A stretch of 64,000 bases of DNA. It comes from a virus. Made by a program: the position numbers and the translations under genes. The notes below the pieces were generated by a model, which saw only the letters and a program-made list of their open reading frames with translations, searched no databases and was not told where the DNA came from. The stretch is from positions 1 through 64,000 of IMG/VR virus record IMGVR_UViG_3300021959_008125. One strand, written 5' to 3'. This document shows positions 39,658 to 60,111 of the stretch, in pieces (position 1 is the first letter of the stretch; every line of letters begins with the position of its first letter).

Positions 39658-40395
39658 ATGGCAACAGAAAACAAATTTCCAACAGAGATTGTAGAATTAC
39701 CTTCAAAAGGACTTCTTTATCCTAAAGAATCTCCTTTATCTTCTGGTACAGTTGAGATGAAGTATATGACTGCAAAGGAAGAAGATATTCTTACTAATCA
39801 AAATTACATTCAAAACGGTACTGTTATTGATAAACTTTTACAGGAACTTATTGTAGATAAAAAAGTTAATTATGGAGACTTATTAACTGGAGATAAAAAT
39901 GCATTATTGGTAGCTGCTAGAATCCTTGGGTACGGTAAAGATTATCAATTTAATTATGCCGGGGATACCGTTACAGTTGATCTTGCTGAGCTTGATAATA
40001 AGACGTTAAATGAAGAACTTTTTAAAGAAGGTAAAAACCAATTTAGCTTTAAATGTCCTACAACAGGAACTCTTCTTACATTCAAACTTTTATGTCACTC
40101 TGACGATGTTAAAATAGATAACGAAGTAAAAGGACTTAAAAAGATTAATAAAAATGCTTCTCCTGAATTATCCACAAGACTTAAACATATGATCACCTCA
40201 GTTGACGGTAATGAAGAGTCTAAAGAAATAAGAGATTTCGTAGATAATAGATTTTTAGCTAGAGATTCTAGAGAACTTAGAAAGTATATAGCAGAAATTC
40301 AACCAGATGTAGATCTTAAATTTTACCCGGACAATGGGCCGGAGGAAGGAGTGGAGGTCCCTATCGGGATCAACTTTTTTTGGCCTGACGCCTGA
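39658..40395 (+). CDS. Tail/baseplate-hub assembly chaperone (T4 gp26-like)
   Basis: VELPSKG..Y; MTAKEED.L; GD..ALL..AR...YG; ends FFWPDA; upstream of tape measure. Confidence 0.8.
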   Translation: MATENKFPTEIVELPSKGLLYPKESPLSSGTVEMKYMTAKEEDILTNQNYIQNGTVIDKLLQELIVDKKVNYGDLLTGDKNALLVAARILGYGKDYQFNYAGDTVTVDLAELDNKTLNEELFKEGKNQFSFKCPTTGTLLTFKLLCHSDDVKIDNEVKGLKKINKNASPELSTRLKHMITSVDGNEESKEIRDFVDNRFLARDSRELRKYIAEIQPDVDLKFYPDNGPEEGVEVPIGINFFWPDA

Positions 40396-40642
40396 GTATA
40401 GATTAGACGTATTTAACGTCATACATAACATAGTATTTCACGGAAAAGGTGGCTTTGACTGGCATACAGTATATAATATGCCTATATGGCTGAGAAACTT
40501 TACCTACAGGAACATACAAGAATTTTATCAAAAAGAGAAAGAAGCTTACGAAAAAGCACAAGGTAAATCTCAATTAAAAGGAAATCAACCAAAAGGTCCT
40601 GCAATTCGTACACCTTCTTATAATACAAAGGCTCGCAAATAG
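40334..40642 (+). CDS. Tail chaperone C-terminal extension (gp51/gpT-like), probably made by frameshift
   Basis: FFGLTPEYR...GGFDWHTVYNMPIWLR; lies in +1 frame and lacks a convincing own start. Confidence 0.65.
   Translation: MGRRKEWRSLSGSTFFGLTPEYRLDVFNVIHNIVFHGKGGFDWHTVYNMPIWLRNFTYRNIQEFYQKEKEAYEKAQGKSQLKGNQPKGPAIRTPSYNTKARK
40375..40381 (+). other. Candidate programmed frameshift site (T7 run)
   Basis: AAC TTT TTT TGG (0 frame) vs ACT TTT TTT GGC (+1 frame, continues into the downstream ORF). Confidence 0.6.
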
Positions 40643-40650
40643 TGGGCCTT
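40628..40650 (+). terminator. Hairpin/terminator-like element
   Basis: AAGGCTCGC-AAATA-GTGGGCCTT spanning the stop codon. Confidence 0.5.
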
Positions 40651-40653
40651 TCC

Positions 40654-40661
40654 TATTTATA
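40654..40661 (+). promoter_or_regulatory. TATTTATA putative late promoter
   Basis: Intergenic, before tape measure GTG. Confidence 0.55.
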
Positions 40662-40677
40662 TAAAATATAACCACAC

Positions 40678-42930
40678 GTGGATCCAAAAATACAAGAACT
40701 TTTAAACGCACTAGACGCAGCTGGAAAAAGCACTGCATCGTTTCGTAATGAGTACGAAAGATTAAAAAAAGAAGGTCAGGAAGTTAATTCCTTGATGAAT
40801 ACTATGGAGTCTACTCTTAAAGGAGCTCAAGCAGAAGCTAGAGGACTAGGAGATGGTTTTAGAGATGTTAGGGATATACTACGAGAATCTTTAGCAGAGT
40901 TAAAGGAGACTGAAACTGCAATAAAACAAGGTACTAAAGCTTACCGTAACTTAACCAGTGTTGTCACATCTTTAGCACAAGAAGAAGAAGGAATATATAC
41001 CTATTCGGTAAAGCAACTTGAAACATACGATAAAAGAGCTAAATCTGCATTATCTGAACAAAAACTTGCAGCCGAAAGATTAGCGAGAGAAAAAATAGGG
41101 TTAAACTTTTCTGGTGAATTAAATGAGCAAACGATAGATAGGTTAAAATTCTTAGGTAAGATAAACGATGAAGAAGAGGCTTTATTAAGAGCAGCAGCAA
41201 ATGGTTTTGATATAGAAGAAGAATCAGTAAGATTAATCGAAAAACGTTTAAAAAGAGAAAAAGCACTCGTAAAAACTTTCGGACTAGCAGGAGCAGCATT
41301 AGAAGGAGCTACTAAAATAGCTAATAAGTTCGGAATGAGCCATATCTCAGAAGAACTCAACGATATAAACTCTCAGCTTAAAGATGAAATGCGTGCTGAA
41401 ATAAAAGCAAACGGAGATGAATCTTTAGGATTTGGTAGAAAGTTTGCCTATGCAGGTAGAGCCATAGGAAAAACTGCTGTTGCTATAGGAAAAGGAATGA
41501 TGGATCCTTTGTTTATAATTGGAAAGATATTTAATTCTTTTCTTAATATAAATAAAGAAGCAGTAAACCTTAGCAGATTAGTAGGCCGTTCAAATGTAAG
41601 TTTTAATAATTTAAACAGTAGCCTCGCTACAACTGTGGAACTCTTACAAGAAGCTGCAGAATTTACAAGACAGACAGGATTAGCAGCAACTTCTATATTT
41701 TCAAATGATCAGCTGGCTAATATTGCTGAATCTAAAAAACTACTAGGATTGTCTGCCGAACAGGCCGGCAACTTAGCCTTATTCTCAAACCAGACAGGAG
41801 ATAGTATTACTCAATTCGAAGATGGATTAGTAGACGGTATAAAAGCAGCTAATAAATTAGGTAAATCAGCTGTTGCACCCGGTGTTGCTTTACAGGATGC
41901 TTTATCAGCTGCCAAAGGCATTGCTTTATCTCTAGGTAATAATCCTAAATTATTAGGTCAAGCAGCAACAGCAGCACGTGCATTAGGTTTAGAACTATCT
42001 AGAGTTGATGATATTGCTGAAGGGTTGTTAGACTTTGAATCTTCTATACAGAATGAATTAGAGGCACAGCTTTTAACCGGAGGCCGTATAAATTTAGCAA
42101 AAGCTAGAGAATTAGCATTAAATAACGATTTAGCCGGCCTATCAGCAGAATTAGCTAAAAACGGAGCATCAGCAGCTGAATTTGCTAATATGAATCGTAT
42201 TGCGCAGACTTCATTAGCTAAGGCTTTAGGTATGTCTAGAGATGAATTAGCTAACATGCTTATTCTACAAGATACCCAAGGTAACTTAACAGATGAACAA
42301 AGACAAAAGATACTAGGAGTAACTAAAGAACAACTAAAATCCTTAGATATACAGCAAAGCATAAATGACTCTATTACTAAAATGTCAGAAGCTTTAGCTG
42401 GCCCTTTAGCATCTTTAGCACAGTTAATAAGCCATGCAACGATATTAAAAGGCATTATAGGTGGTATTGCTACTATTATAGGAATTAATATGGTTACTGG
42501 ATTAATACAAAATTTGAAGTATTTAGGCAGAGTACTAAAACTTTCTAAAGGAATAGCAATTGCTGAAGCAGCTATAGCATCTGTAAGAGCTTTATCAAAT
42601 CCTTTTCTAGCTATTGCTGGAATAGCAGCTGCAGCCGCAGTAGCAGGTGCTGCAGGGTACTATATCGGTAAAGCAAAACAAACAGGAGACTTACAAATTA
42701 ATCCTAATGGCGGACCAGTAGTAATGTCCCCAAGAGAAGGAGGCTTATATCAAGGAACTAAAAATGACGCCTTAATGATGGCACCTCCAGGTGCTATGGG
42801 TGGATCAAATGCCGAGTTAATAGCAGAAATTAGAGCATTAAGAACTGTGGTAGAAAAAGGAGGAGACGTAGTAATGGACGGTTCTAAAGTAGGGCAAGTT
42901 ATTACAATGAATTCATATAAATTATCATAA
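40678..42930 (+). CDS. Tail tape measure protein
   Basis: 750-aa helical Ala/Leu-rich; LLDFESSI..ELEAQLLTG..INL.KAR; hydrophobic C-terminal helices; follows chaperone pair. Confidence 0.85.
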   Translation: MDPKIQELLNALDAAGKSTASFRNEYERLKKEGQEVNSLMNTMESTLKGAQAEARGLGDGFRDVRDILRESLAELKETETAIKQGTKAYRNLTSVVTSLAQEEEGIYTYSVKQLETYDKRAKSALSEQKLAAERLAREKIGLNFSGELNEQTIDRLKFLGKINDEEEALLRAAANGFDIEEESVRLIEKRLKREKALVKTFGLAGAALEGATKIANKFGMSHISEELNDINSQLKDEMRAEIKANGDESLGFGRKFAYAGRAIGKTAVAIGKGMMDPLFIIGKIFNSFLNINKEAVNLSRLVGRSNVSFNNLNSSLATTVELLQEAAEFTRQTGLAATSIFSNDQLANIAESKKLLGLSAEQAGNLALFSNQTGDSITQFEDGLVDGIKAANKLGKSAVAPGVALQDALSAAKGIALSLGNNPKLLGQAATAARALGLELSRVDDIAEGLLDFESSIQNELEAQLLTGGRINLAKARELALNNDLAGLSAELAKNGASAAEFANMNRIAQTSLAKALGMSRDELANMLILQDTQGNLTDEQRQKILGVTKEQLKSLDIQQSINDSITKMSEALAGPLASLAQLISHATILKGIIGGIATIIGINMVTGLIQNLKYLGRVLKLSKGIAIAEAAIASVRALSNPFLAIAGIAAAAAVAGAAGYYIGKAKQTGDLQINPNGGPVVMSPREGGLYQGTKNDALMMAPPGAMGGSNAELIAEIRALRTVVEKGGDVVMDGSKVGQVITMNSYKLS

Positions 42931-42931
42931 C

Positions 42932-42939
42932 TATTTATA
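42932..42939 (+). promoter_or_regulatory. TATTTATA putative late promoter
   Basis: Intergenic, 10 nt before ATG 42950. Confidence 0.55.
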
Positions 42940-42949
42940 AATAAACAAT

Positions 42950-43147
42950 ATGGGAATTTTAAAAAACCAATTACAAGGAAGTAACTTAGGATTTAAAGGA
43001 AACACTCCTGCAAAAAGAGAAGGAGCATTACCTACCTCAAACCTACACGCAATCAGTAAAGGACAGGTATCTTCACCTTCTTTCAACTCAAAGCACGACC
43101 TGGACGGACTTACCCCAGACAAATACTCTGATAACAAACCTCAATAA
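42950..43147 (+). CDS. Small tail-associated protein
   Basis: 65 aa, DLDG.TP.KY.DN.P; own promoter motif. Confidence 0.55.
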   Translation: MGILKNQLQGSNLGFKGNTPAKREGALPTSNLHAISKGQVSSPSFNSKHDLDGLTPDKYSDNKPQ

Positions 43148-43150
43148 TAG

Positions 43151-44659
43151 ATGGGCATAATCCAGAACTTTAAGGAAGGTAAGATGGATGGACTGCGTTC
43201 ACTTAAAAACAGTGAATTCGGTACAAAGGATCTATATATAAGTAAAGATCTTCCTCCGTCTAATCCGTTAAACTCATCTGGATTTTCTTACAATGGAATA
43301 AACTCTAGAACTAACGATTTAGGGAGAATTGCAAAACTTATTGCAGATAAACCCGGCTTTAAGTATATTAGTAATATTAATCTACTTAACCAGGTAGATA
43401 CATCTGCTAAGATTCAGAGATCTGGCAATCAAAAAGGACAATTTGATTTAAAGACTTTTGGTAACAAAGTTAAGGAAGGAATTATTTCTGGGCTAGTTAA
43501 TACTGCTTTACAGGTCGGCACAGTTTTAGCTCAAGTTCCTGTAAATGGAACAGGGCTACATTTTATAAACGGACTTTCTCCGTCAGGATATCTCCAGACA
43601 GGAGCACCTAGAACTTCCGGTTTAGGTCAGTTTTTAGAATCACAGGGTATAGGCGGAGGAGTCAACGGAGCAAAAAGTGTACTGAATGGAATGCCTGTTC
43701 CTACCGACGTTGAACAAAGACTTGAAAGTATACTAGCTGATCAAGGTTCTTCAACTAACAATATTAGTGATAGAACTATTAAACCTAAAATTGAAAACAA
43801 ATACCTTGTAGATGATTTTTCTAAAGGAGCTACTACAACTACCTATAATGTTTCTGGAGTTAGTATCGAAAACAAATTCAAAAAAACTCAATCAGGAAAT
43901 AACCATACTTCAGCCGACTATATAAACGGTCTAGCAGAACAAACTAATTCTATTTTAGGAGATGACGACGACATTATACCTTTTGAATTTCATAGATTAG
44001 GTATAGAAAAAGAAGATAATGGAATTTTTCTATACTTTAGAGCGTTTTTAGATAGTTTTAACGATAACTACTTAGGTGAATGGTCTGGCACACGTTATAT
44101 AGGTAGAGCAGAGCAGTTCTATACATATCAAGGATTTAACAGAGAGATTCAATTTAGTTTTAAAATTGCAGCTTTTAGTAAAGTCGAGATTAATCCTCTT
44201 TATAGAAAGTTAAATTTATTAGCCGGAACAACAGCACCATCTTATAATGCCAATAAAGATTTTATGAGAGGAACATTAACTTCGATTACAATTGGAGATT
44301 ATTTAGTAGCTCAAAAAGGATTTATAAGTAACATAGCATTAAGTTGGGAAAAAGGGTATCCATGGGAAATCACAACCGGAGACACAGAAGAAAAAGGAAA
44401 CGTAAAACCTGAATCAAGATTAAGAGTTCCTCATATACTAAATGTTGATGTATCATTTACACCTATACATGAATTTAATGTTAAAACAGATTTAGAATTA
44501 AGTACTAACGATAAGTATATTGGGGGGTCTAATACTTTAAAAAATATACCTATAGAACAGATAAGAAGACCGAGAACAGAACCTACTGAGGAACAGACTC
44601 AAAATTTTGATCAATTTTCCGGAGAACAAGGATTTGGAACTTTAGGTAGCGGATTTTAA
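43151..44659 (+). CDS. Baseplate/tail-tube initiator-like protein
   Basis: FRAFL..F.D.Y...W....YIGRAE.FYTY.GF.R.I.FSF; ITIGDY. Confidence 0.7.
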   Translation: MGIIQNFKEGKMDGLRSLKNSEFGTKDLYISKDLPPSNPLNSSGFSYNGINSRTNDLGRIAKLIADKPGFKYISNINLLNQVDTSAKIQRSGNQKGQFDLKTFGNKVKEGIISGLVNTALQVGTVLAQVPVNGTGLHFINGLSPSGYLQTGAPRTSGLGQFLESQGIGGGVNGAKSVLNGMPVPTDVEQRLESILADQGSSTNNISDRTIKPKIENKYLVDDFSKGATTTTYNVSGVSIENKFKKTQSGNNHTSADYINGLAEQTNSILGDDDDIIPFEFHRLGIEKEDNGIFLYFRAFLDSFNDNYLGEWSGTRYIGRAEQFYTYQGFNREIQFSFKIAAFSKVEINPLYRKLNLLAGTTAPSYNANKDFMRGTLTSITIGDYLVAQKGFISNIALSWEKGYPWEITTGDTEEKGNVKPESRLRVPHILNVDVSFTPIHEFNVKTDLELSTNDKYIGGSNTLKNIPIEQIRRPRTEPTEEQTQNFDQFSGEQGFGTLGSGF

Positions 44660-44661
44660 AA

Positions 44662-47685: not shown

Positions 47686-47703
47686 ACTTAAAAGGTTATA
47701 TAA

Positions 47704-49029
47704 GTGTTTTATATAGTAGAGACAGAAATCCAATTAGAAAAGTTAGAAAGACTAGGACGCCTAGGAGGTTATGTAGATATTATATCTTCTAATAATAACT
47801 TCCATCCAAAGCTTACCTCTACTATTGCTATATATCTCAGACCTACAAATAGTAAGCATGGATTTATTATTCCTATAAATCACGATGAAGGAATTAATAC
47901 AGCTAAAGAACGTGTCTCTAAGATACTTAATGCCTACAAACCACTTTATACCTTAGATAAGAAAAACCTTCTGTATCACTTTAATATACAGGATAGTATA
48001 GATTTATCTTTACTTTATGCTATGACTAATTATAGCAAATTAGAGTATTCTAGAGAAAACTCCTCTTTAAACTTTTTCTATAATAAGTTTTCTAAACATA
48101 CAAACATTAATCAGCTTATTCCTATAACAAAATTGTATGAATCTTGTGAAAAAGTATACGAGTCTGTAAAAGAATTCTTAAATTTAACTATACCTGATAA
48201 GTTTGACTTTTATAATAAGACTGCAACTAATGTATTTTTTCTTTTAGAGCAGTCAGGATTAGGAATACACTATGAGGCTTTCAATAAAATGTTTAATCCT
48301 AGAGATCCTTTATACAATATAAAAGACAATATAACTTATTCGTCATATAATCTATACAATGCTACATCTAGACCTACTAATGCTTTCAATTCTGTTAATT
48401 ATGCTGCTATCCCCAAGACAGAAGAGCATAGAAAATGTTTTAGGCCCCAAAACGACTTTTTTGTTGAGCTGGACTTTGACGGTTATCACCTTCGGTTACT
48501 TTGTGATCAGATTGACTTTGATATTCCTTCTGATTCTGCTCATAAATATTTAGCACAAATTTACTTTAATAAAGAAGAGATTAATGAAGAAGAATACCAA
48601 GAAGCAAAACAAACTAACTTTCACGCAATTTATGGCAAAATACCAGAGAAGTGGGCGAGCCTTGAAATCTTTTGCAGAATTAATTCGTATATCCGAGAGC
48701 TTTGGAGACAATATGAAAATGACGGAAAAGTCTTGGCTCCTATTAGTGGAAAACCATTTACAAGGGGATTACGAGACATGAATCCTCAAAAGCTGATGAA
48801 CTATATCATGCAATCGCTTGAAACCTCAAGAAATATTCTTATATTAAAAGATGTACTTAGGTACTTAAAAGATAAAAAAACTAAGGTAGCTCTTTATACC
48901 TACGATGCGATTTTATTCGACTTTTCAAAAGAGGACGGTAAAGAAACATTACAAAAACTTAAGGAGATAATGGAATCCGGTGGAAAATACCCAGTAAAAT
49001 TTAAACACTCCAGGGATTTACGTTTATAG
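47704..49029 (+). CDS. polA: Divergent compact family A DNA polymerase
   Basis: TSRP.N; motif A LDFDGYHLRL; motif B KQTNFHAIYG; NY..QS; motif C TYDA. Confidence 0.75.
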   Translation: MFYIVETEIQLEKLERLGRLGGYVDIISSNNNFHPKLTSTIAIYLRPTNSKHGFIIPINHDEGINTAKERVSKILNAYKPLYTLDKKNLLYHFNIQDSIDLSLLYAMTNYSKLEYSRENSSLNFFYNKFSKHTNINQLIPITKLYESCEKVYESVKEFLNLTIPDKFDFYNKTATNVFFLLEQSGLGIHYEAFNKMFNPRDPLYNIKDNITYSSYNLYNATSRPTNAFNSVNYAAIPKTEEHRKCFRPQNDFFVELDFDGYHLRLLCDQIDFDIPSDSAHKYLAQIYFNKEEINEEEYQEAKQTNFHAIYGKIPEKWASLEIFCRINSYIRELWRQYENDGKVLAPISGKPFTRGLRDMNPQKLMNYIMQSLETSRNILILKDVLRYLKDKKTKVALYTYDAILFDFSKEDGKETLQKLKEIMESGGKYPVKFKHSRDLRL

Positions 49030-49048: not shown

Positions 49049-49507
49049 ATGAACGAAATAGTTACTAAACCGAGGTTTGATTACGACATAGAACCTTTTC
49101 AGTTTAACGAAGATATGAGCAATAAGCTTTTTTGCACCTTTGCTACAGAAAATACTCTAGATTCAGTACTAGAGGAAATTCAGGAAAGGTATAAAATTAT
49201 TTACAACAAAATTTTTGTCCTTTACTCTAAAAGTCAAGATGAGTATATTTGTACTTATAATGTAGACTTTGGAAATGTAGGAGCATTTTTAGATAATACT
49301 ATTCTCGTCCACAGAAAAAAAGAATCTAACACACTCTATACAATTAATGCCCTTAATACTCTAATTAAAGAGTTAAACGGAGGGCAATTAGACACATCTT
49401 ATAGAGTTAACTGGCCTGATTACAGAAACTGTATACTACTAACCAAAGGACCAGAACTCAAGAGAGTAAATACAAAACTTTTCCGTATTGTAGAGTTGGA
49501 TCGTTAA
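49049..49507 (+). CDS. Hypothetical phage protein
   Basis: KLFCTF; HRKKESNTLYTINALN; true start may be 49115 (TATTTATA at 49041-49048). Confidence 0.6.
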   Translation: MNEIVTKPRFDYDIEPFQFNEDMSNKLFCTFATENTLDSVLEEIQERYKIIYNKIFVLYSKSQDEYICTYNVDFGNVGAFLDNTILVHRKKESNTLYTINALNTLIKELNGGQLDTSYRVNWPDYRNCILLTKGPELKRVNTKLFRIVELDR

Positions 49508-49524
49508 GATCTTTTTCTTATATT
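49496..49524 (+). promoter_or_regulatory. Bacteroidota-type promoter (TTG-N20-TATATT)
   Basis: TTG 49496-49498, TATATT 49519-49524, before SSB. Confidence 0.6.
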
Positions 49525-49553
49525 AAAATAAAACGTTATAATAAATTAGTTAT

Positions 49554-50336
49554 ATGGATTTAAATGCGATTAAGGCTAAACTAGATGCCTTGAACAACAA
49601 CGGTCAGCAAAGAGAAAAGACTGACTATTCAACAATTTTTTGGAAACCTGAATTAGGTAAGCAAACGATTAGAATCGTTCCTTCTGCCTATGATCCTGCT
49701 TTCCCGTTTAAGGAATTAAAATTCCATTACGGAGTAGGAAAGTACCCGATGGTTGCTTTATCAAACTTTGGTAAGCAAGACCCAATCGAAGAGTTCGTAA
49801 AAGAACTAAGAAAAACTAACGATAAAGATAACTGGTCTTTATCAGGTAAACTCAACCCTAAAACTAGAATCTTTGCTCCTGTAGTAGTTAGAGGAGAAGA
49901 AGATAAAGGAGTTAGATTATGGGGATTCGGTATTACTATCTATAAAGCATTACTTGCTTTGGCAGAAGATGAGGATATCGGAGACTTTACAGACGTTATT
50001 AACGGATGGGATATGGTAGTAGAGCAGGTACAAGGTAACCCTTACCCTGAGACTACTGTTCGTATTAAACCTAAACAGACTCCATTATCAGATAATAATG
50101 ATTTAGTTGATAAATGGTTAAAGGAACAACCTAATCCGGTAGAAGTACATACTCAATATGATTATGACTTTATTAAAAAGCAATTACAGAACTATCTTAA
50201 CCCTGGATCAGGAGACGATTCATCAGATACTCCAGCAGCAGCACCTGCACCTAAGCAATCTGACTTTACGTTAGAAACTGCTACTGAAGGTAATAAAGAT
50301 ACTGTATCAAAATTTGACGATTTATTTAATGAGTAA
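49554..50336 (+). CDS. Single-stranded DNA-binding protein (T4 gp32-like)
   Basis: FWKP..G...IRIVP; DPI; VRLWGFG; G.D; acidic C-terminal FDDLF. Confidence 0.8.
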   Translation: MDLNAIKAKLDALNNNGQQREKTDYSTIFWKPELGKQTIRIVPSAYDPAFPFKELKFHYGVGKYPMVALSNFGKQDPIEEFVKELRKTNDKDNWSLSGKLNPKTRIFAPVVVRGEEDKGVRLWGFGITIYKALLALAEDEDIGDFTDVINGWDMVVEQVQGNPYPETTVRIKPKQTPLSDNNDLVDKWLKEQPNPVEVHTQYDYDFIKKQLQNYLNPGSGDDSSDTPAAAPAPKQSDFTLETATEGNKDTVSKFDDLFNE

Positions 50337-51406
50337 TGGCTAAGAAAAAAGAGACACAACAAAAAGCTGCAGCAGCAGTACAGAAGTCTTTTAATCTTAG
50401 CAACTTCAAAAAGAAGAAAGGTTATTCAAATGCATCTGTTAAGTTTAAAGAGCAAGGATGGATTCCCCTATCTAAAGCCTTTCAAGATATTACTTCCCTG
50501 CCTGGTATCCCAACCGGGCACATCACTCTGTTGAGAGGACATAGTGATACAGGCAAGACAACTGCCTTGTTAGAAGCTGCGGTGAATGCTCAAAAAATGG
50601 GCATTCTCCCTGTCTTCATTATAACTGAGATGAAGTGGTCTTGGGAACACGCTAAAGAGATGGGTCTTCAATTCGATGAAGTAAAAGATAAAGACGGTAA
50701 CGTATTAGATTACGAAGGCCATTTCCTTTATGCTGATAGAGGTCAACTGAATACTATTGAAGATGTAGCAGTTTATATTGCAGACCTTATGGATGAGCAA
50801 TCCAAAGGAAATTTACCTTTTGATATGTGTTTTTTCTGGGACAGTATTGGCTCAGTACCCTGTGATCTTTCGGTTAGATCAAATAAAAACAACAACGAAT
50901 GGAATGCTGGAGCAATGTCTACTCAGTTTGGTAATAACTTAAATCAAAAGATTCTTCTATCTAGAAAAGAAAACTCTCCTTATACCAATACTATGGTGGC
51001 TATCAATAAGGTTTGGACTATGAAACCTGAATCACCGATGGGTATGCCTAAGTTACAAAATAAAGGAGGTATGTCTATGTGGTATGATGCTACGTTAGTG
51101 ATTACTTTCGGTAATATTACTAACCCAGGTACATCAAAGATAAAAGCTATCAAGAACGGACTTCAGGTTGAATTTGCTAAACGTACAAACGTACAGATAG
51201 AGAAGAACCATATTGGTGGAGTTCAATCTAGAGGAAGAGTAGTTATGACCTCACATGGTTTTATACCTGATGATAAACGTGCAATCGATAAATATAAAGA
51301 CGAGCATAAAGATCACTGGTTGAAATTAGTCGGTAGTCTAGACTTTGACCTAATAGAAGAAGGAGATTTAGAAGAAGATAATATTACTCCTAATCTATTA
51401 GATTAA
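50336..51406 (+). CDS. recA: RecA/UvsX-like recombinase
   Basis: GIP.G; Walker A GHSDTGKT; FFWDSIGS; KGG; KNH. Confidence 0.85.
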   Translation: MAKKKETQQKAAAAVQKSFNLSNFKKKKGYSNASVKFKEQGWIPLSKAFQDITSLPGIPTGHITLLRGHSDTGKTTALLEAAVNAQKMGILPVFIITEMKWSWEHAKEMGLQFDEVKDKDGNVLDYEGHFLYADRGQLNTIEDVAVYIADLMDEQSKGNLPFDMCFFWDSIGSVPCDLSVRSNKNNNEWNAGAMSTQFGNNLNQKILLSRKENSPYTNTMVAINKVWTMKPESPMGMPKLQNKGGMSMWYDATLVITFGNITNPGTSKIKAIKNGLQVEFAKRTNVQIEKNHIGGVQSRGRVVMTSHGFIPDDKRAIDKYKDEHKDHWLKLVGSLDFDLIEEGDLEEDNITPNLLD

Positions 51407-52419
51407 TGGCATACGACGATATTCTAAAAAATCTTAAAGAAACCCCACCCCGAGCTCTTAATGATCATATCTTGATCATAGATGCGATGAATACCTTAAT
51501 CAGGTCATTCTCGCTGCTCAAGGCGATGAATCCATCAGGCACCCATGTTGGCGGTCTGGTGGGTTTCCTTCGCTCGCTAGGGTACGTAACCCGCATCTTT
51601 GACCCGACAAGGGTCATTGTTGTGTGGGACGGTAAAGGTGGTGCCGGAAATAGAAAGAATATCGATCCGAATTATAAAGCACAGAGAGCTACAGCTCGAA
51701 TAACTCACTGGGGTTTATACGATACCAGAGAAGAAGAACAAGAAGCTTTAATCGGACAATTATATAGAACCCAGGATTATCTTGAATGTCTACCTATACA
51801 TCAGATGGGGTTAGAAAAACTTGAAGCTGATGATATCATAGCATATCTAGCTAATAGAGCATCCAATGCCGGTAAAAAAGTAACTATAGTATCATCAGAT
51901 AAAGATTTTTTACAGCTAGTTAATGGTAATATCGAAGTATATGCTCCGGTTAAAAAGAAAACTTTTACAAAAGATAATATATTTGAAGAATTAAAAGTTC
52001 TTCCAGTAAATTATAATATAGTAAAAGCTCTACTTGGAGATAATTCTGATAACTTATTAGGAGTCAAGGGATTAGGGATAAAGACTATAGTATCTGAATT
52101 TCCTAAGCTACTTACCGAGGTATCTGATTTAGATTATGTTTTCAAAACTGCTGAAGAAAAACTTGAAGGCAAAAAAATCTTTGCTAAAATTATTCATAAC
52201 TGGGATAGAGTTGAGACTAATTTCAAGTTAATGGACTTACATGAAACTACTTTAGATGAGAAAGAGATAGAATATGTTGAGTCCATTATGAAAGAAAATA
52301 TACCTGGACTCCAAACAGGAGCATTCTTGCATCTTATGGACCAAGATAAGATAGAAGGTATTACTAAGAATACCGAAGGCTGGTTAGAAACATTCCGAGC
52401 TTTAACTACTGTAAAATGA
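51406..52419 (+). CDS. 5'-3' exonuclease / flap endonuclease (T4 RNase H-like)
   Basis: IIDAMN; VWDG; YKAQR; EADDII; SSDKDFLQL; LLGD.SDN..GVKG.G.KT. Confidence 0.92.
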   Translation: MAYDDILKNLKETPPRALNDHILIIDAMNTLIRSFSLLKAMNPSGTHVGGLVGFLRSLGYVTRIFDPTRVIVVWDGKGGAGNRKNIDPNYKAQRATARITHWGLYDTREEEQEALIGQLYRTQDYLECLPIHQMGLEKLEADDIIAYLANRASNAGKKVTIVSSDKDFLQLVNGNIEVYAPVKKKTFTKDNIFEELKVLPVNYNIVKALLGDNSDNLLGVKGLGIKTIVSEFPKLLTEVSDLDYVFKTAEEKLEGKKIFAKIIHNWDRVETNFKLMDLHETTLDEKEIEYVESIMKENIPGLQTGAFLHLMDQDKIEGITKNTEGWLETFRALTTVK

Positions 52420-52991
52420 ACACAGGTATACTAAAGTTAAGTTTTAACTTAGATTGGAAAAATATAAAACCTATAGCTGAAAAACTTATAGAAAGAAGTA
52501 GACGTGATAGTTTAGAGGTAAATACCGATAATACTATGTTTAACAGAGAACAACCAACACACCTACTTCCAGAACTAAGGTCTTTTTATACTTTTTTAAA
52601 ACCTCATTACTTAAATTTAGCTTATAATATTCTCAAATATCCAAAAGATCTTGAATTAGTAGTCTTACATTCTTGGTTTAACAGGTATAATGATAATGGC
52701 TACATTAAGACTCATGATCATGCAGGAGCAATTATTAGTAGTGCTCTATATTTAGAAGTACCTGAAAATAGTGGAGATCTTTTATTTAGAGATCCGTACT
52801 ACGACTTTAAGAAAAACTACAGTACAAGTTCATCTGAAGATTGGCTTTGGGAAAAAGCTAATGTAAAAGTAAACGACCTTTTTATTTTTGATGCAGCAAT
52901 TTCACATAGAAGTGAACCAAATAAAAGTGGAAAAGAAAGGTGGGTATTAGGTACTAATATTGGAATAAAACCTAAAAAAACATTATTATGA
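52416..52991 (+). CDS. 2OG-Fe(II) oxygenase
   Basis: SWFN; HDH; S.ALYL; F.DP; H...N...R. Confidence 0.8.
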   Translation: MNTGILKLSFNLDWKNIKPIAEKLIERSRRDSLEVNTDNTMFNREQPTHLLPELRSFYTFLKPHYLNLAYNILKYPKDLELVVLHSWFNRYNDNGYIKTHDHAGAIISSALYLEVPENSGDLLFRDPYYDFKKNYSTSSSEDWLWEKANVKVNDLFIFDAAISHRSEPNKSGKERWVLGTNIGIKPKKTLL

Positions 52992-53386
52992 GAAAAGGAG
53001 TTATAGCAGGAAATTTTGATGTAATTCACCCAGGATATATAAAGATGTTTAAGGAATGTAAAGATAATTGTGATGAATTTATTATCCTTTTACACTCTGA
53101 TCCTTCTATAGAACGCCCTCATAAACTTAAACCTATCCTGTCAGTAGAAGAAAGAGACGAAATGCTTATGTCAATAAAGTATATTGATAATGTATTTACT
53201 TATACTTATGAAAGAGAGCTTTTAGAGCTTTTAAAAATAGTAAATCCTCAAGTTAGGTTTTTAGGTGATGATTATAAAGATAAACCATTTACTGGTTATG
53301 ATTTAAAAATACCTATTCATTATTTGAATAGAGACCACGGGTGGTCAACTACAAAATTTAAAAAATTAATTGCTCAATCGATTTAA
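52988..53386 (+). CDS. Cytidylyltransferase (TagD/glycerol-3-phosphate CT-like)
   Basis: GNFDVIHPGY; KP; ER; G.DY; R..GWSTT. Confidence 0.82.
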   Translation: MRKGVIAGNFDVIHPGYIKMFKECKDNCDEFIILLHSDPSIERPHKLKPILSVEERDEMLMSIKYIDNVFTYTYERELLELLKIVNPQVRFLGDDYKDKPFTGYDLKIPIHYLNRDHGWSTTKFKKLIAQSI

Positions 53387-53398
53387 TTTTCTTATATT
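53370..53398 (+). promoter_or_regulatory. Bacteroidota-type promoter (TTG-N20-TATATTTA)
   Basis: TTG 53370-53372, TATATT 53393-53398, before helicase. Confidence 0.6.
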
Positions 53399-53415
53399 TA
53401 AACAAAGGTTACTGA

Positions 53416-54756
53416 ATGACATTAAAGAGTTTACAACAATACGGGAAGGGGTTCCAACTAAAAGTTTTAGGATCATTACTCACAGATAAAAAGTTCTTAC
53501 TTAACGTAAGAGACGTTTTACACGATAATTATTTTGATGCTGATTCACATAAGTGGATCATAGGTCAGATATGTTCTTATTTTGATAAGTACCATACTAA
53601 TGTTACTATGGACGTTCTTAAAGTAGAGCTTCAAAAACTCGAAAACGAAGTCCTTCAAGTAGCATTAAAAGAAGAGTTAAGAAACTCTTATCAAGCCTCT
53701 CAAGACGATTTAGAATACGTTCAAGAAGAGTTTACTACTTTCTGTAAGAATCAAGAAATGAAAAACGCCATACTTAACTCAGCCGATCTTCTTAAAGAAG
53801 GAGATTTCGATGGTATTAGAAACCAGGTCGAAAAAGCAATGAAAGCGGGTATGGATAAAAATATCGGACATGAATATAATAAAGACGTTGAAACGAGATA
53901 TCGTACGGATTACCGTCCTACTATTCCTAGTCCTTGGAGCATACTTAATGACGGTATCCAAGGCGGGTTTGGTCCCGGAGATCTTGCAATTGTGTTTGGT
54001 AATCCTGGTGGCGGTAAAAGCTGGACTATGGTTGCTATTGCTGCTCATGCAGTTAAACTTGGATACAAAGTCAACTACTATACACTCGAATTGGGAGAGG
54101 ATTATGTTGGTAAGCGTTTTGATTGCTACTTTACTGGCTATTCTATAGATGAAGTAAATAAACATAGAAAAGAAGTACAGACGTACGTCGACAATCTAAA
54201 AGGTAAGCTTATAGTAAAAGAATATGCTCCTAAGTCAGCGACGGTAAATACCATAAAGTCACACGTACAAAAGTGTGTTGACATGGAACATAAACCAGAC
54301 CTTATTATTATTGACTACGTTGATTATTTAAGAGCACCTTCTAGAGGTAAATCGTTTGAAAGGAAAGATGAGATTGATGATGTATTTATCGCAACCAAAG
54401 GATTAGCTAAAGAATTAAAAATACCTATTTTGACACCATCACAGGTTAATAGAATGGGAGCTAAAGATTCTGTAATTGAAGGAGATAAGGCAGCCGGATC
54501 TTATGATAAGATGATGGTGGCTGATATCTGTCTATCTCTTTCAAGACAGAAAGAAGATAAAGTTTTAGGTACCGGTAGAGTTCACGTGATGAAAAATCGA
54601 TATGGTCAAGATGGTATGACTTATAATGTAAAAATGGATACTAATAACGGACATATAGAGTTTTTAGAAAAAGCAGATGCTAGAGATTTGATACCAGAAG
54701 AAGATTCTAAACCTAAATTTAATTTATCTCGCGAACAAATGGAAAAATTATTATAA
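53416..54756 (+). CDS. dnaB: Replicative DNA helicase (DnaB/gp41-like)
   Basis: Walker A GNPGGGKS; TLEL; IIIDYVD; SQVNR; KNRYG. Confidence 0.92.
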   Translation: MTLKSLQQYGKGFQLKVLGSLLTDKKFLLNVRDVLHDNYFDADSHKWIIGQICSYFDKYHTNVTMDVLKVELQKLENEVLQVALKEELRNSYQASQDDLEYVQEEFTTFCKNQEMKNAILNSADLLKEGDFDGIRNQVEKAMKAGMDKNIGHEYNKDVETRYRTDYRPTIPSPWSILNDGIQGGFGPGDLAIVFGNPGGGKSWTMVAIAAHAVKLGYKVNYYTLELGEDYVGKRFDCYFTGYSIDEVNKHRKEVQTYVDNLKGKLIVKEYAPKSATVNTIKSHVQKCVDMEHKPDLIIIDYVDYLRAPSRGKSFERKDEIDDVFIATKGLAKELKIPILTPSQVNRMGAKDSVIEGDKAAGSYDKMMVADICLSLSRQKEDKVLGTGRVHVMKNRYGQDGMTYNVKMDTNNGHIEFLEKADARDLIPEEDSKPKFNLSREQMEKLL

Positions 54757-54761
54757 AAATA

Positions 54762-54794: not shown

Positions 54795-54797
54795 AAC

Positions 54798-54830: not shown

Positions 54831-54861
54831 GTCTAATCACCTTACAAATATATAAAGATAT

Positions 54862-55839: not shown

Positions 55840-55846
55840 TTATTTT

Positions 55847-57562
55847 ATGAGTATAGTAGTAGATACTTCCAACTGGGAGGCCGGTAAGGATTATCCTGAA
55901 TGGATGAATGAGGTTTCTCTTGCAACAATATCAAAAGGGTATTTAATGCCCGATGAAACACCTAAAAAAGCATACCGTAGAGTAGCAGATACTATAGCAA
56001 ATAGATTAGACCGTCCAGATCTAGCTAATAAATTCTTTCGGTATATGTGGAAAGGTTGGCTAAATCTAGCTTCACCAGTTCTATCTAATACAGGAACAGA
56101 TCGTGGCTTACCTATTTCTTGTTTTGGTATAGATACTCCTGACTCTATTAGAGGAATTGGTCTTACAAACGCTGAGTTAATGAGATTAACATCATTAGGA
56201 GGTGGTGTAGGCATCGGATTATCTAAAGTCAGAGGTAGAGGTCAAAAAATCGGTAAAGATGACATGGGACAATCAGAAGGCATCGTTCCATGGGCTAAAA
56301 TCTACGATTCAACAATCATAGCAACTAATCAAGGGGCAGTAAGAAGAGGAGCAGCTTCTGTCAACTTAGATATAAACCACCCAGACATAGAAGAATTTCT
56401 ACAGATTAGAAGACCAAAGGGAGATCCTAACAGACAATGTCTAAATCTACACCAGTGTGTTGTAGTAGACGATGCATTCATGCAAAAGTTAGAGCATAGA
56501 GACCCTGAAGCAATGAAATTATGGGTAGAAATATTAAAATCAAGGGTAGAAACAGGTGAACCTTACATTATGTTTAAGGATAACGTAAATAACGCTAATC
56601 CTCCAGCATACAAAAAGAATAACCTAGATGTTTCAATGACAAATATTTGCTCAGAGATCACTTTACACACAGATGAAGAGCATAGCTTTATTTGCTGTCT
56701 GTCATCTGTTAACCTTACTAAATGGCATGAATGGCGCAACACAGATCTTATAGAAACCGCAATATATTTTTTAGATGGAGTGTTAGAAGAGTTCTTAGCA
56801 AAAACTTCTGGAAGGGAGTCACTGGTAAGAGCCCACAGATCCGCTAAAAAAGGTAGAGCAATCGGTCTAGGTGTGTTAGGATGGCATACTCTACTGCAGA
56901 ACGAAAGAATCCCTTTCGCTTCTATTGCAGCTACATCTTTAACACACCAGATCTTCTCTGATATTAGAAATAAGGCGGAAGCTGCTTCAAGAAAGCTAGC
57001 AGATGAATATGGAGAACCTGTATGGTGTAGAGGAACCGGTATGAGAAACAGCCACTTACTTGCTATTGCACCAACTGTATCTAACAGTACTATATCAGGA
57101 GGAGTATCAGCAGGTATTGAACCTGTTCCTGCTAACGTCTACACGTTTAATTCCGCTAAAGGAACGTTTATTAGAAAGAATCAAGCACTTGTAGATTATT
57201 TAGAAGAAAGAGGAGCAAATACTGAAGAAGTTTGGGATCAAATTATGAAAGATAGAGGTTCAATTGCAAATCTACCTGAAGATGTAATGCCGGCAGAAGA
57301 TAAACCTATCTTTTTAACATTTGCAGAAATAAATCAGCTACAACTTGTAGAACAAGCTGCAGCAAGACAAAAGTATATAGACCAGACTCAATCACTTAAT
57401 TTAGCCTTCGATCCAACTGATAGTCCTAAGTTTATTAATGAAGTTCATCAAACAGCTTGGAGATTAGGAGTTAAAACCTTATATTATTTAAGAACAGATT
57501 CAGTAATTAATGGAGATATAGGAAGTAGAACGTCTACTGATTGTTTATCTTGTGATGGGTAA
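55847..57562 (+). CDS. nrdA: Ribonucleotide reductase class I alpha subunit (no ATP cone)
   Basis: SPVLSN; ISCF; GGVG; TNICSEI; CCLSS; IAPT; KTLYY; C-terminal CLSC. Confidence 0.95.
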   Translation: MSIVVDTSNWEAGKDYPEWMNEVSLATISKGYLMPDETPKKAYRRVADTIANRLDRPDLANKFFRYMWKGWLNLASPVLSNTGTDRGLPISCFGIDTPDSIRGIGLTNAELMRLTSLGGGVGIGLSKVRGRGQKIGKDDMGQSEGIVPWAKIYDSTIIATNQGAVRRGAASVNLDINHPDIEEFLQIRRPKGDPNRQCLNLHQCVVVDDAFMQKLEHRDPEAMKLWVEILKSRVETGEPYIMFKDNVNNANPPAYKKNNLDVSMTNICSEITLHTDEEHSFICCLSSVNLTKWHEWRNTDLIETAIYFLDGVLEEFLAKTSGRESLVRAHRSAKKGRAIGLGVLGWHTLLQNERIPFASIAATSLTHQIFSDIRNKAEAASRKLADEYGEPVWCRGTGMRNSHLLAIAPTVSNSTISGGVSAGIEPVPANVYTFNSAKGTFIRKNQALVDYLEERGANTEEVWDQIMKDRGSIANLPEDVMPAEDKPIFLTFAEINQLQLVEQAAARQKYIDQTQSLNLAFDPTDSPKFINEVHQTAWRLGVKTLYYLRTDSVINGDIGSRTSTDCLSCDG

Positions 57563-57563
57563 C

Positions 57564-57571
57564 TATTTATA
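57564..57571 (+). promoter_or_regulatory. TATTTATA putative late promoter
   Basis: Fills the 12-nt gap before the Ser/Thr-rich gene. Confidence 0.55.
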
Positions 57572-57574
57572 TAT

Positions 57575-58501
57575 ATGCCAAGAAAGTATACATTAACAGC
57601 AACATCTTTAGGAGTAGATACAGATATAGTTGATATTTACCATACCTCTGTAACTGCAGGGAATTTATTAACATCTAGCATCTCAGCTTCAAGTCTGTTG
57701 ACCGGTGTAGAGTTAATAGTTAATGACAATACTTCATCATTTATTGTAGTTAATTCTAGTACTGCTTGTTCTGGTTCTTCCGGCAGCGTGGATGAAGGTG
57801 TGTATGAACCTAATACAAGATTTTTTGAATTAATTGTTGCCGATACTAACGCAGTGGCAGCCGGGTCCGGTACAGGTTCTATTTCTATTAGTTCTCCGAC
57901 ATCGGCAGGCCCTTCATCAACTTCCCTTACCCAAACAGTCGATTTTGATGCAGCTTCAACTTTTACTACCACTGCAACAGGTAATTCTAATTATGATTTT
58001 ACTGGGTGGTATACTTCTAGTTTAACATCATCTGGTGCATTAATATCTACTAATGCTACTTTAAACATTACTGAAAACGCTTATACTCATAGTTTAAGAG
58101 AAGACAGATTTTATGCTGTATTTTCTTACAATCCACCAGCAACTAACTGGAGTGTGACTGGTTCACTTACTTCGGGTTTTGTTACTTCTTGGAAAGTTAT
58201 ATACGACTATGGAGGAGTATTTAATGTAGTACATGATTTAGATAGCGGGGGTAATAATTTAGAAGATGACAGGATTTCTGGTAATGCTTCAACTGTAGAT
58301 ATTACTGTTTATAAGGTAACTAATGCAGGTGTGGCCCAAGATGCAGGTAATGTAAGCGCTAGAGTTATTGGAGGTTCAGTACAACAGGATATATTCAACA
58401 CAAATGATAATATAGGTTCTGGTAATCCCTTTACGTATACTCTTAACATTTCTCCATTCCAACCTGGTGCACAAGTTGAAGTAATAATAGAAGAAGGATA
58501 G
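57575..58501 (+). CDS. Ser/Thr-rich putative virion decoration protein (InlB B-repeat-like)
   Basis: TATGNSNYDFTGWY; many S/T-x-S motifs; late-type motif upstream. Confidence 0.55.
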   Translation: MPRKYTLTATSLGVDTDIVDIYHTSVTAGNLLTSSISASSLLTGVELIVNDNTSSFIVVNSSTACSGSSGSVDEGVYEPNTRFFELIVADTNAVAAGSGTGSISISSPTSAGPSSTSLTQTVDFDAASTFTTTATGNSNYDFTGWYTSSLTSSGALISTNATLNITENAYTHSLREDRFYAVFSYNPPATNWSVTGSLTSGFVTSWKVIYDYGGVFNVVHDLDSGGNNLEDDRISGNASTVDITVYKVTNAGVAQDAGNVSARVIGGSVQQDIFNTNDNIGSGNPFTYTLNISPFQPGAQVEVIIEEG

Positions 58502-58530
58502 TTGTTTTTTACGTATAATTTTCTTATATT
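58502..58530 (+). promoter_or_regulatory. Bacteroidota-type promoter (TTG-N20-TATATT)
   Basis: TTG 58502-58504, TATATT 58525-58530. Confidence 0.6.
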
Positions 58531-58548
58531 ATATATAAAATAAGTTAT

Positions 58549-58686
58549 ATGTCAAAAAATTCAAGCAAACAAAATCTTAACCAGTTGATAGAGTGGCTAG
58601 CGGCCAATAAAAACGTTAAGAAGGTATACAAAGAAGGAGGAAAAGTAAAATTTAATGCACCTCACTTTAACAAAAGAAGAAAATGA
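58549..58686 (+). CDS. Small basic protein (45 aa; not in ORF track)
   Basis: MSKNSSKQNLNQLIEWLAANKNVKKVYKEGGKVKFNAPHFNKRRK; follows promoter; ATGA overlap with thioredoxin. Confidence 0.6.
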   Translation: MSKNSSKQNLNQLIEWLAANKNVKKVYKEGGKVKFNAPHFNKRRK

Positions 58687-58943
58687 AAAAGTTAATAAAA
58701 TTTTATGCTGCATGGTGTGCTCCATGTAGAAGTTATGCAAATACCTGGGATGAAGTAACTCCTGATTATGCAGATCAAATCGAACTTCATAATATCGATA
58801 TTGATAAAGATACAACAGGTCTAGCTAATGAATACCAAGTAAGAAGTATTCCTACAACAGTTTTAGTTAGAGAAGACGGGTCAACTGTTAAAAAAGTAGG
58901 AGCTTTATCTAAAGAAGATTTAACCGAACTAATTTTATCATAA
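58683..58943 (+). CDS. trxA: Thioredoxin
   Basis: FYA.WCAPC; V.SIPT. Confidence 0.92.
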   Translation: MKKLIKFYAAWCAPCRSYANTWDEVTPDYADQIELHNIDIDKDTTGLANEYQVRSIPTTVLVREDGSTVKKVGALSKEDLTELILS

Positions 58944-59240
58944 ATGTTACGTAAACCAGATTCAATCCCTGCAGGGGATACAATTATCGAAGATCCAGCA
59001 ATGGAACCATTTTTTATTACTAAATCACAGACAGGTGGATATACTGTTTATGAAAGAGTAACAAAAGGAGAGAACAATACTAATTATATTAAAACTGTAA
59101 GTTACCCTTCAAACTTTGGTGCAGCATTAAAAACTGTATCTTTAGAGCTATTAAATGAAGGAGGAAAAGTTTATAATATAAAAAGTTATGTAGAACGTTG
59201 GGAAGAAATAAAAAATTCCTTAACTTCTGTATTAGAATAG
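58944..59240 (+). CDS. Hypothetical phage protein
   Basis: IEDP.MEPFFI; intact ORF. Confidence 0.55.
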   Translation: MLRKPDSIPAGDTIIEDPAMEPFFITKSQTGGYTVYERVTKGENNTNYIKTVSYPSNFGAALKTVSLELLNEGGKVYNIKSYVERWEEIKNSLTSVLE

Positions 59241-59273
59241 CGTTTGCCTATACGCTTAATAATACCTGGCAAA
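59239..59273 (+). ncRNA. Candidate cis-regulatory H-type pseudoknot in queC leader
   Basis: P1 AGCGT(59239-43)/ACGCT(59252-56); P2 TTGCC(59244-48)/GGCAA(59268-72); A-rich L3. Confidence 0.5.
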
Positions 59274-59292
59274 TTTTATTAATTATTTTATC

Positions 59293-60111
59293 ATGGCAAA
59301 AAATGTCGTAGTTAGTCTTTCAGGAGGGATGGACTCCTCTACTCTTTTACTTAGATGTTTATCTGAGTATGACAATGTAACAGCTTTATCTTTTGATTAC
59401 GGTCAAAAGCATAGAGTAGAACTTGAAAGAGCACAGTCTTTAGTAGATTATATTAATGAAAATTGTACTGACGAAAATTGTTTCGGCGGATGCAGAGTTA
59501 ACTATCAAGTAATTAAGTTAGATGGCTTAGTTAATCTTTTAAACTCTAACCTTGTAGAAGGTGGAGAAGATGTACCGGAAGGTCATTATGAAGAAGATAA
59601 CATGAAAGCAACAGTTGTACCTAATAGAAATAAAATCTTTGCTTCTATCACGCAAGCTGTAGCTTTATCAGCAGCTAATGCTAACGGTTTAGATACCGAT
59701 ATTGCTTTAGGAATTCATGCCGGTGATCATGCTATCTATCCAGACTGTAGACAAGAGTTTAGAGATGCAGACGATAATGCATTTAGAATCGGTAACTGGG
59801 ATGCAGAAAAAGTAGGTTATTTTACTCCTTACTTAGATACTGATAAATTAGGAATTTTAAAAGATGGACAAAAATTGGTTAAAGAGTTGGGAATTGAGTT
59901 TAATGAAGTTTACAAACGTACTAATACTTCCTATAAGCCTTTTCCTAGCGGGAATAGTGATTATAAGTCCGCTTCATCTGTTGAGCGAATCGAGGCGTTT
60001 ATCAACCTCGGTGTGGATGACCCTGTTCAATACGAGGATGAAACTGGACCGGTTGACTATTCAGTTGCGAAATCTCATGTTGAAAAGCTTTTAGCAGAAC
60101 ACGCAGCATGA
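59293..60111 (+). CDS. queC: 7-cyano-7-deazaguanine synthase QueC
   Basis: SLSGGMDS; YGQKH..E; VPNRN; HAGD...YPDCR. Confidence 0.92.
   Translation: MAKNVVVSLSGGMDSSTLLLRCLSEYDNVTALSFDYGQKHRVELERAQSLVDYINENCTDENCFGGCRVNYQVIKLDGLVNLLNSNLVEGGEDVPEGHYEEDNMKATVVPNRNKIFASITQAVALSAANANGLDTDIALGIHAGDHAIYPDCRQEFRDADDNAFRIGNWDAEKVGYFTPYLDTDKLGILKDGQKLVKELGIEFNEVYKRTNTSYKPFPSGNSDYKSASSVERIEAFINLGVDDPVQYEDETGPVDYSVAKSHVEKLLAEHAA

Follow-up and report, generated by a model that had tools for sequence, protein, structure and literature searches.

The 5′–3′ exonuclease gene (exo, encoding a FEN-like protein) of a marine Flavobacteriia phage carries an RNA hairpin that, by comparison of related sequences, is maintained through synonymous codon choice over deep divergence and is the one deeply conserved element; we regard it with good confidence as a selected structure. 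The gene lies in the window analyzed here, a 64,000-nt stretch of DNA (IMGVR_UViG_3300021959_008125, positions 1–64,000) in which open reading frames (ORFs) on the + strand make up about 96% of the sequence. An initial annotation of the window had drawn ten multi-hairpin islands within its genes and read them as a second layer of information in the core genes. Folding of the sense strand does exceed what composition and protein sequence require, and this excess clusters past start codons and within the replication module. The explanation that we favor, and hold to be probable, is that the ten islands do not form one system and that the signal consists of a start-proximal folding tendency together with an exo hairpin kept by synonymous choice.

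The hairpin in the exonuclease gene

Relatives of the window were collected from IMG/VR. The exo locus gave 256 matches, of which the best 80 were kept (77–92% protein identity); a further set holds 64 loci, kept from 68 matches, of the clade of Flavobacterium phage vB_FspM_immuto (immuto). This 160-kb myovirus is 72.5% identical to positions 49.5–57.5 kb of the window, with 81% of the length aligned, and its annotation names polA, ssb, recA, 5′–3′ exonuclease, DnaB-type helicase, NrdB, NrdA and QueC, in agreement with the names polA, ssb, recA, exo, helicase, nrdA and queC given initially. Codon alignments for ten genes were built from the related loci. Exact z-scores (z) compare the folding of an island with 300 dinucleotide shuffles, with codon-permutation shuffles as a second null, and stability was compared at the orthologous segments of relatives among about 60 related IMG/VR contigs, with 22 relatives for exo and for nrdA. 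A family profile free of preselected islands was derived from 12 diverse relatives. In column shuffling, codons are swapped within alignment columns, which keeps the make-up of each column and breaks the combinations within a sequence; synonymous-codon permutation within 150-nt segments leaves the protein and the local set of codons unchanged; and synonymous resampling of the exo hairpin draws codons from family usage while keeping the protein. Two hairpins in the gene are referred to below.

51522–51574, + strand: central exo hairpin, 53 nt, 21 bp (5+13+3) with five G-U pairs
51461–51479, + strand: small exo hairpin, 7 bp (ATGATCA / TGATCAT) over N-D-H-I-L-I-I, with two covarying pairs

Both lie in the flagged exo island, which begins 38 nt past the exo start codon and has a GC content of 51%. 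GC at third codon positions (GC3) is 0.57 in the island and 0.42 in the same segment of relatives, against 0.25–0.28 for the gene. All 22 relatives fold this segment at z −2.1 or lower (mean −4.0), and the family profile peaks at 51466 with z −3.55. Column shuffling weakened the folding by 6.8–8.7 kcal/mol, compared with a background of 0.8±1.2. The codon-preserving check that the initial annotation had asked for also came out in favor of structure: at 51481–51630 the mean z of the family was −3.9 and that of the window −5.8, against a background of −0.75±0.94.

The central hairpin, which codes for K-A-M-N-P-S-G-T-H-V-G-G-L-V-G-F-L-R, has the same fold in 86 distinct sequences from two clades. 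In their alignment 80.3% of the cells are paired, against 75.9±0.4% after partner shuffling and 26–54% with slid partners. Pair 17–39 is CG in 45 sequences and AU in 23, pair 4–54 occurs as four pair types, and cells changed on both sides number 60, against 26.5±3.5 for shuffles that are not tree-based. The hairpin is stronger on the sense strand both in the window (z −4.7 on + versus −1.8 on −) and in immuto, where nucleotide identity is 63% and z is −3.5 versus −0.4. Synonymous resampling placed it at z −2.8 to −6.5 in the window's clade and −2.7 to −3.4 in the immuto clade, and at −2.3 to −3.1 when GC was matched. Direct reading of the codons shows that the stem is partly imposed by the protein, the Asn-Pro codons being complementary to the Gly-Phe codons. 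Since the resampling and permutation scores lie below the null, synonymous sites add to this imposed pairing. As the hairpin is kept in immuto, a cultured relative, its function is directly testable.

Within the small hairpin, pair 51462–51478 is UA in 28, CG in 14 and UG in 4 sequences and pair 51465–51475 is UA in 23, CG in 14 and UG in 9; in both, a synonymous site pairs with an Ile/Val site, and each site changed 9–12 times on the tree. Independent contrasts for these two pairs and 51485–51516, all picked post hoc, ran about 10.7 the same way versus 1 opposite. Over the 185-nt structure of the whole island, 36 cells are changed on both sides, compared with 13±4 in shuffles that again are not tree-based.

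Consensus folding with RNAalifold was weak for 53 and 86 sequences (−7.9 and −5.0 kcal/mol), as the register of the lower stem varies among lineages. A terminator-like hairpin inside the island (51600–51616) was set aside, its stem being lost in most relatives. In some relatives (L034 and, with similar spacing, L002, L025, L046 and L047) about 460–600 extra bases separate recA and exo; in L034 they hold a 197-aa ORF (9406–9999) with no Pfam family. The exo hairpin adjoins the insertion in all five relatives and is thus independent of the recA–exo overlap.

Flagged islands and other structured stretches

The stems of the ten flagged islands can all be drawn where they had been described. Scores below are exact z for the window and, where given, means over relatives (20 for the tape measure gene, TMP; 25 for island 1, from a set of 80 IMG/VR loci, L146–L225, assembled for the hub-like gene).

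40324–40398, + strand: tail/hub island 1; z −1.45, relatives mean −0.32
42121–42201, + strand: TMP island, not supported; z −1.8, relatives mean −0.5
43527–43627, + strand: baseplate-gene island, marginal; z −2.5, codon-permutation z −1.9, only six weak matches in relatives
48698–48830, + strand: polA island, not supported; z −0.9, relatives mean +0.2
49694–49807, + strand: ssb island, with a better-conserved adjoining stretch at 49776–49925; z −4.6
50494–50647, + strand: recA island over the Walker A region; z −4.2
51444–51628, + strand: exo island, multi-hairpin; z −5.6
53907–54066, + strand: helicase island over Walker A, not supported; z −0.5, relatives mean −0.7
56864–56953, + strand: long nrdA hairpin, lineage-specific; z −5.4
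59952–60062, + strand: queC 3′ island, not supported; z −2.2, relatives mean −0.5

Measured against dinucleotide shuffles, four of the ten (exo, nrdA, ssb and recA) fold beyond chance. The other six stay within it (z −0.5 to −2.5), and codon-permutation shuffles gave the same picture. A whole-window scan in 120-nt steps with regression-based z was calibrated on block-shuffled copies of the window (60-nt blocks). These null scans placed 0.6–1.4% of scanned segments below −3 and 0–7 loci below −4, with minima of −3.9 to −7.1, so hairpins picked by eye with z above about −3 carry no weight. The real + strand had 2.0% of segments below −3 and 12 loci below −4; the excess over the whole window is modest, and its extreme tail lies within the null replicates.

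A second layer running through all core genes is thus not what the scores describe: those of polA, helicase, queC 3′, TMP and island 1 are not below background and the islands are unconserved, and the baseplate island is not below background by either null. Selected structure at the mRNA level is clear for exo and extends to recA and ssb within the window's clade and to two stretches outside the flagged islands (nrdA 56072–56270 and queC 59323–59442); for the six islands that fold no better than chance the idea fails. The proposed sense-strand nature of the signal was borne out, recA and the exo hairpin both scoring more strongly on + than on −. Nothing speaks for a common regulator: no motif of sequence or structure recurs among the islands, no repeat family linking them was found in the window, and a covariance model of the exo hairpin gave 73 bits for its own site and no more than 11 bits for any other place in the window. 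Rfam 15 at the gathering threshold matched only a tRNA in the window (60449–60520), and at E≤1 over 49.0–60.5 kb it added only a chance DnaX match on the − strand at 58131. Imposing the window's structures on relatives gave 72–90% pairing for every island, the unconserved nrdA one included, and was dropped as not discriminating.

Locally raised synonymous GC had also been noted. It is present in exo, recA (GC3 0.49 in the island versus 0.31 in the gene) and ssb (0.41 versus 0.26) and absent from helicase, where GC sits in codon positions 1 and 2 (GC1/GC2/GC3 0.60/0.53/0.26) and comes from Gly/Pro/Ala codons. The off-frame ORFs were rejected as overlapping genes, not being consistently open in relatives and showing no synonymous constraint: across 40 helicase sequences (the window and 39 relatives) the + strand frame at 53870–54148 (+1 frame, 92 codons) is open in 27 and the − strand frame in 5. 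The + strand frame probably arises incidentally from a conserved stretch with few stop codons. Neither TMP nor the baseplate gene nor the 441-aa polA has a PHROG match at E≤1e-3.

The recA and ssb structures are, as their distribution indicates, clade-level features of the window's own clade, with ssb stability kept in part. At recA the relatives have a mean z of −3.4 (median −4.2); the family z is −2.2 to −2.6 on + versus −0.4 to −0.5 on −, the profile peaks at 50540 (−2.63), column shuffling costs 4.5–5.3 kcal/mol, and the codon-preserving check gave a family z of −2.1 to −2.5 against the background of −0.75±0.94. The ssb island has a mean z of −1.7 in relatives, with 18% below −3, a family z of −1.9 to −2.2, a profile peak at 49791 (−2.22) and a column-shuffling cost of 3–4 kcal/mol. 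Its codon-preserving check at 49776 gave a family z of −2.1 on the same background, and cells changed on both sides number 29 versus 14 for shuffles.

The flagged nrdA hairpin is a lineage-specific oddity. It has arms of about 20 nt and a total of 33 pairs; the mean z in relatives is −0.7, and only the nearest relative, L057, keeps the hairpin (−3.1). Column shuffling made no change, and the codon-preserving check left the family z near background. The protein equals the family consensus while the gene carries 15 synonymous differences from it, and against family codon choices the hairpin scores z −6.2. One conceivable origin, for this element only, is a recent lineage-specific event that built the inverted repeat, either by quasi-palindrome templated mutation or under fresh positive selection. 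The unchanged protein, the 15 synonymous differences, the score against family codons and the restriction to the window and L057 all fit such an event. The structure was defined on the window itself, which makes a count of pairing-favoring differences circular, and one such extreme in 64 kb is within the reach of chance in the null scans; we consider the event possible but doubtful.

Two further structured stretches had not been flagged.

56072–56270, + strand: near the nrdA 5′ end; family mean z −3.2 and −2.6
59323–59442, + strand: 30 nt past the queC start; family mean z −2.5 on + versus −1.0 on −

The former has a profile peak of z −3.18 at 56087, a column-shuffling cost of 4.4–5.4 kcal/mol (56072–56296) and a synonymous permutation z of −1.7. 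The latter peaks at −2.54 in the profile, with z −2.75 in the window and −2.0 in immuto.

Island 1 is better read as a candidate conserved +1 recoding site than as a significant hairpin. The ORF at 39658–40395, taken initially for a tail chaperone, instead matches the baseplate-hub family phrog_150 (E 5e-9). It overlaps the next ORF (40334–40642), which lies in the +1 frame, and has a T7 run at 40375–40381. Near its end (window 40360–40398), 78 of 81 sequences retain the nucleotides of the motif TTT[C/T]TTTGGCCTGAC; in each of the 77 relatives in which the downstream ORF was located, it occupies the +1 frame. About 20–35 nt before the motif there is a purine-rich GGAGG-like run. No stable stimulatory RNA was found at island 1, either in the window or in the 25 relatives, where the scores are those listed above. 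The arrangement resembles the prfB-type +1 frameshift in its conserved U-rich shift motif (CUU U / UUU U) near the end of the zero frame, in the purine-rich run upstream and in the +1 downstream ORF. It differs in having no stop codon at the shift position, in the distance of the purine run, which in prfB is 3 nt, and in a predicted stem that is not thermodynamically significant. The setting differs as well: according to one report (PMC7797042), Bacteroidota ribosomes make no use of Shine-Dalgarno pairing.

Folding past start codons and in the replication module

Sense-strand folding is unevenly distributed along the window. In the scan, 4.9% of the segments of 47.7–60.2 kb fall below −3, compared with 1.0–1.6% elsewhere. 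With exact z on non-overlapping segments, the sense strand of this replication module has a mean of −0.61 (n=75, p 1.6e-4) with 14.7% below −2, and its antisense strand a mean of −0.15; the sense strand of the rest of the window also averages −0.15, with 2.7% below −2 (module versus rest, Mann-Whitney p 0.019). The conserved patches all lie early in their genes, and the family profile averages −0.8 to −1.0 over the first 330 nt and −0.2 to −0.4 later. A positional profile was compiled from exact z of 120-nt segments in the 42 genes of the window longer than 700 nt, indexed by segment start relative to the start codon.

−60 (across the start codon): mean z +0.13, 41 genes
0: mean z −0.68
+40: mean z −1.02±0.20
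+120: mean z −1.23 in replication genes, −0.17 in other genes
+400: mean z −0.13
+560: mean z −0.20

The +40 value is significant by itself (one-sample p 1e-5) and when paired with mid-gene segments (p 9e-5), and the peak is also seen in the 33 non-replication genes (p 0.002). Its antisense mean is −0.49 (paired sense versus antisense, p 0.004). The last 120 nt before the next start codon are structured too (mean z −0.66), in segments that mix gene ends with intergenic spacers.

The favored explanation would run as follows. Six islands would be ordinary chance hairpins of a 64-kb AT-rich sequence, easier to spot where Gly/Pro/Ala codons raise GC, and the remaining islands the extreme end of a folding tendency that this phage's messages show genome-wide. 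In these messages the start-codon region would stay open and the sense strand would fold tightly just 3′ of it; the tight zone would span about +40 to +160 nt in every gene and reach about +450 nt in genes of replication and nucleotide metabolism. Within this tight zone synonymous codons, including the rare GC-ending GGC, CTG, GTG and CGC, would be chosen so that hairpins form, and the exo hairpin would have been kept across two clades by wobble-compatible and compensatory changes. What the folds may do we infer from sequence. Acting in mRNA, they may prevent long-range pairing of the AU-rich initiation region, which lacks a Shine-Dalgarno sequence, delay or spread out the earliest ribosomes, and protect the 5′ portion of the message from decay. 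The exo hairpin, which comes early in the last gene of the three-gene ssb-recA-exo unit, may in addition lower exo output relative to ssb and recA.

Several features of this region were noted alongside. An AT-rich motif, TTTTCTTATAT(T), lies shortly 5′ of ssb (49513–49532) and of the helicase gene (53387–53406), with a similar stretch, TTTCTTATATTATATATAAA, at 58520–58539; it may be a promoter motif bounding an ssb-recA-exo-... unit. In one salt-marsh metatranscriptome, RNA contigs of relatives at about 88–90% span ssb, recA and exo up to about 51.8 kb; there are no contigs at 51.86–52.9 kb, a gap that is not evidence. RNA ends are invisible in such assembled contigs. Between exo and helicase lie a 2OG-Fe(II) oxygenase-like gene (52416–52991) and a cytidylyltransferase-like gene (52988–53386). 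The oxygenase gene is full-length in only 2 of 81 loci (80 from IMG/VR plus immuto) and so has the look of a variable cassette. Of the words sampled from 49500–53400, as many as 91% are present in metagenome runs from estuaries and the sea dated 2018 and 2023, so this phage or very close relatives turn up repeatedly in such waters. With more than 300 IMG/VR relatives (256 + 68) and a presence in many sequencing runs, the phage group is very common in marine and estuarine metagenomes.

Competing readings and known systems

A number of results weigh against the favored explanation. Reduced synonymous diversity, which the initial annotation had expected, was not found in any island in the codon alignments of relatives: observed/expected values are 0.9–1.3 in every island (exo 0.99, recA 0.99, ssb 1.14, nrdA 1.01). 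No covariation was found for the recA island in the alignment of relatives, and the recA and ssb structures are not kept in the immuto clade (z −0.95 and −0.6 in immuto). The published peak, at 30–70 nt, is closer to the start codon than the recA, ssb and nrdA elements are. GC3 is raised in the polA island of the window and relatives where there is no structure, so codon choice at conserved residues may account for some of the GC3 signal. Over the 185-nt exo structure 93.8% of cells pair, and shuffling the 3′ partners hardly lowers this (92.7%); only three pairs covary. The strongest mutual-information pairs over whole genes (average product-corrected, APC) are within-codon pairs of the Ser, Arg and Leu families or clade effects, and the dominance of codon-family and two-clade effects made mutual information unusable as a test of covariation. 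Finally, the sequences share kinship, which inflates the significance of all shuffle-based counts.

Normal synonymous diversity, the small effect of partner shuffling and the partly protein-imposed exo stem are what one would expect if nothing were selected, that is, if the ten islands were chance hairpins, visible through their GC, inherited from ancestors and held by protein conservation alone. Six islands do behave exactly as chance hairpins, and the null-scan minima reach far down. Against this, the exo hairpin beats nulls in which the protein is fixed (family z −3.9; −2.3 to −6.5 in two clades), its column-matched chimeras are 7–9 kcal/mol weaker, and it survives 63% nucleotide identity with compensatory changes and on the sense strand only; the positional profile over 42 genes also stands against an absence of selection, which we judge quite unlikely. 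Somewhat more could be said for the exo and flagged nrdA hairpins as specific processing or binding sites that set half-life or translation, though we hold this to be unlikely. They might be substrates of RNase III or, with the same low probability, operators of a phage protein, possibly the structure-specific exonuclease itself. Both hairpins are long, near-continuous duplexes with small internal loops, the anatomy of an RNase III site (about 20 bp with an internal loop: 5+13+3 bp in exo, 33 pairs in nrdA), and the exo hairpin is discrete and conserved beyond its surroundings. The lack of a motif common to the islands, of a match of the hairpin model to anything other than itself and of any Rfam match speaks against such sites, as does the absence of the nrdA hairpin from 21 of 22 relatives. 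At single elements RNase III processing or translational pausing, both suggested initially, is possible.

The structures could also act in single-stranded DNA, as priming or origin signals or as cruciforms in replication genes. Some phage origins lie within genes, the exo island is part of the replication module, and as a whole it scores on the antisense strand too (z −4.5 in the window, −2.7 family mean). The central exo hairpin and the recA and queC elements, in contrast, are strongly sense-specific because of their G-U pairs, and this strand asymmetry makes a role at the DNA level unlikely. No iterons or repeats were found, cumulative GC skew has no turning point here, and a replication origin was rejected on these grounds. 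That the same trend follows the start codons of 42 genes argues for a role in translation or in the message, and a function in single-stranded DNA seems very improbable. Least credible of all is the suggestion that the islands shield conserved mRNA from RNA-targeting CRISPR (Cas13). The one point in its favor is that some structured patches overlie conserved protein motifs; the helicase Walker A and polA, equally conserved, are unstructured, and structure tracks distance from the start codon and not protein conservation.

A more far-reaching proposal, which we rate as a long shot, is an autogenous post-transcriptional circuit whose operators would be the exo hairpin together with the recA and ssb patches seen at clade level. 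Equally speculative is its premise that phage nucleic-acid-binding proteins each recognize a structured patch early in their own message. If true, the FEN-like exonuclease would bind or cut the hairpin in its own mRNA, and the circuit would govern the stoichiometry among SSB, RecA and Exo in this abundant marine Flavobacteriia phage group. Under the favored explanation, start-proximal folding plus a selected exo hairpin, a large-looking claim separates into signal and noise, with no hidden code through all core genes.

The exo hairpin is, on well-supported sequence grounds, a previously undescribed intragenic RNA hairpin, while the general phenomenon is already known. It shares with the RNase III hairpins of T7 and lambda a duplex of about 20 bp, a small internal loop and a position on the sense strand of a polycistronic phage message. 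T7 and lambda sites are intercistronic or lie in leaders and have shared recognizable features; the present hairpins lie inside coding sequence, have no common features and are known from sequence alone.

The start-proximal profile has close parallels in cellular genomes, where a peak of strong folding 30–70 nt past the start was described for 45% of the species analyzed (Peeri & Tuller 2020, PMC7063772). As in that work and an earlier study (2010, PMC2816680), folding here is weak at the start, peaks downstream and is in mild excess inside the coding sequence, and the signal is carried by synonymous codon choice as measured against codon-preserving shuffles. For Flavobacterium, a published study (PMC6847099) describes mRNA structure as tuning initiation without Shine-Dalgarno pairing. 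The profile of cellular genomes thus holds in a phage with a Shine-Dalgarno-less Bacteroidota host. The phage differs from the published profile in that the tight zone extends to about +450 nt in one gene module and that the last 120 nt before the next start codon, in segments mixing gene ends with spacers, appear structured and not weak. A further difference is that individual hairpins persist as discrete structures over deep divergence; the published profile is a statistical average.

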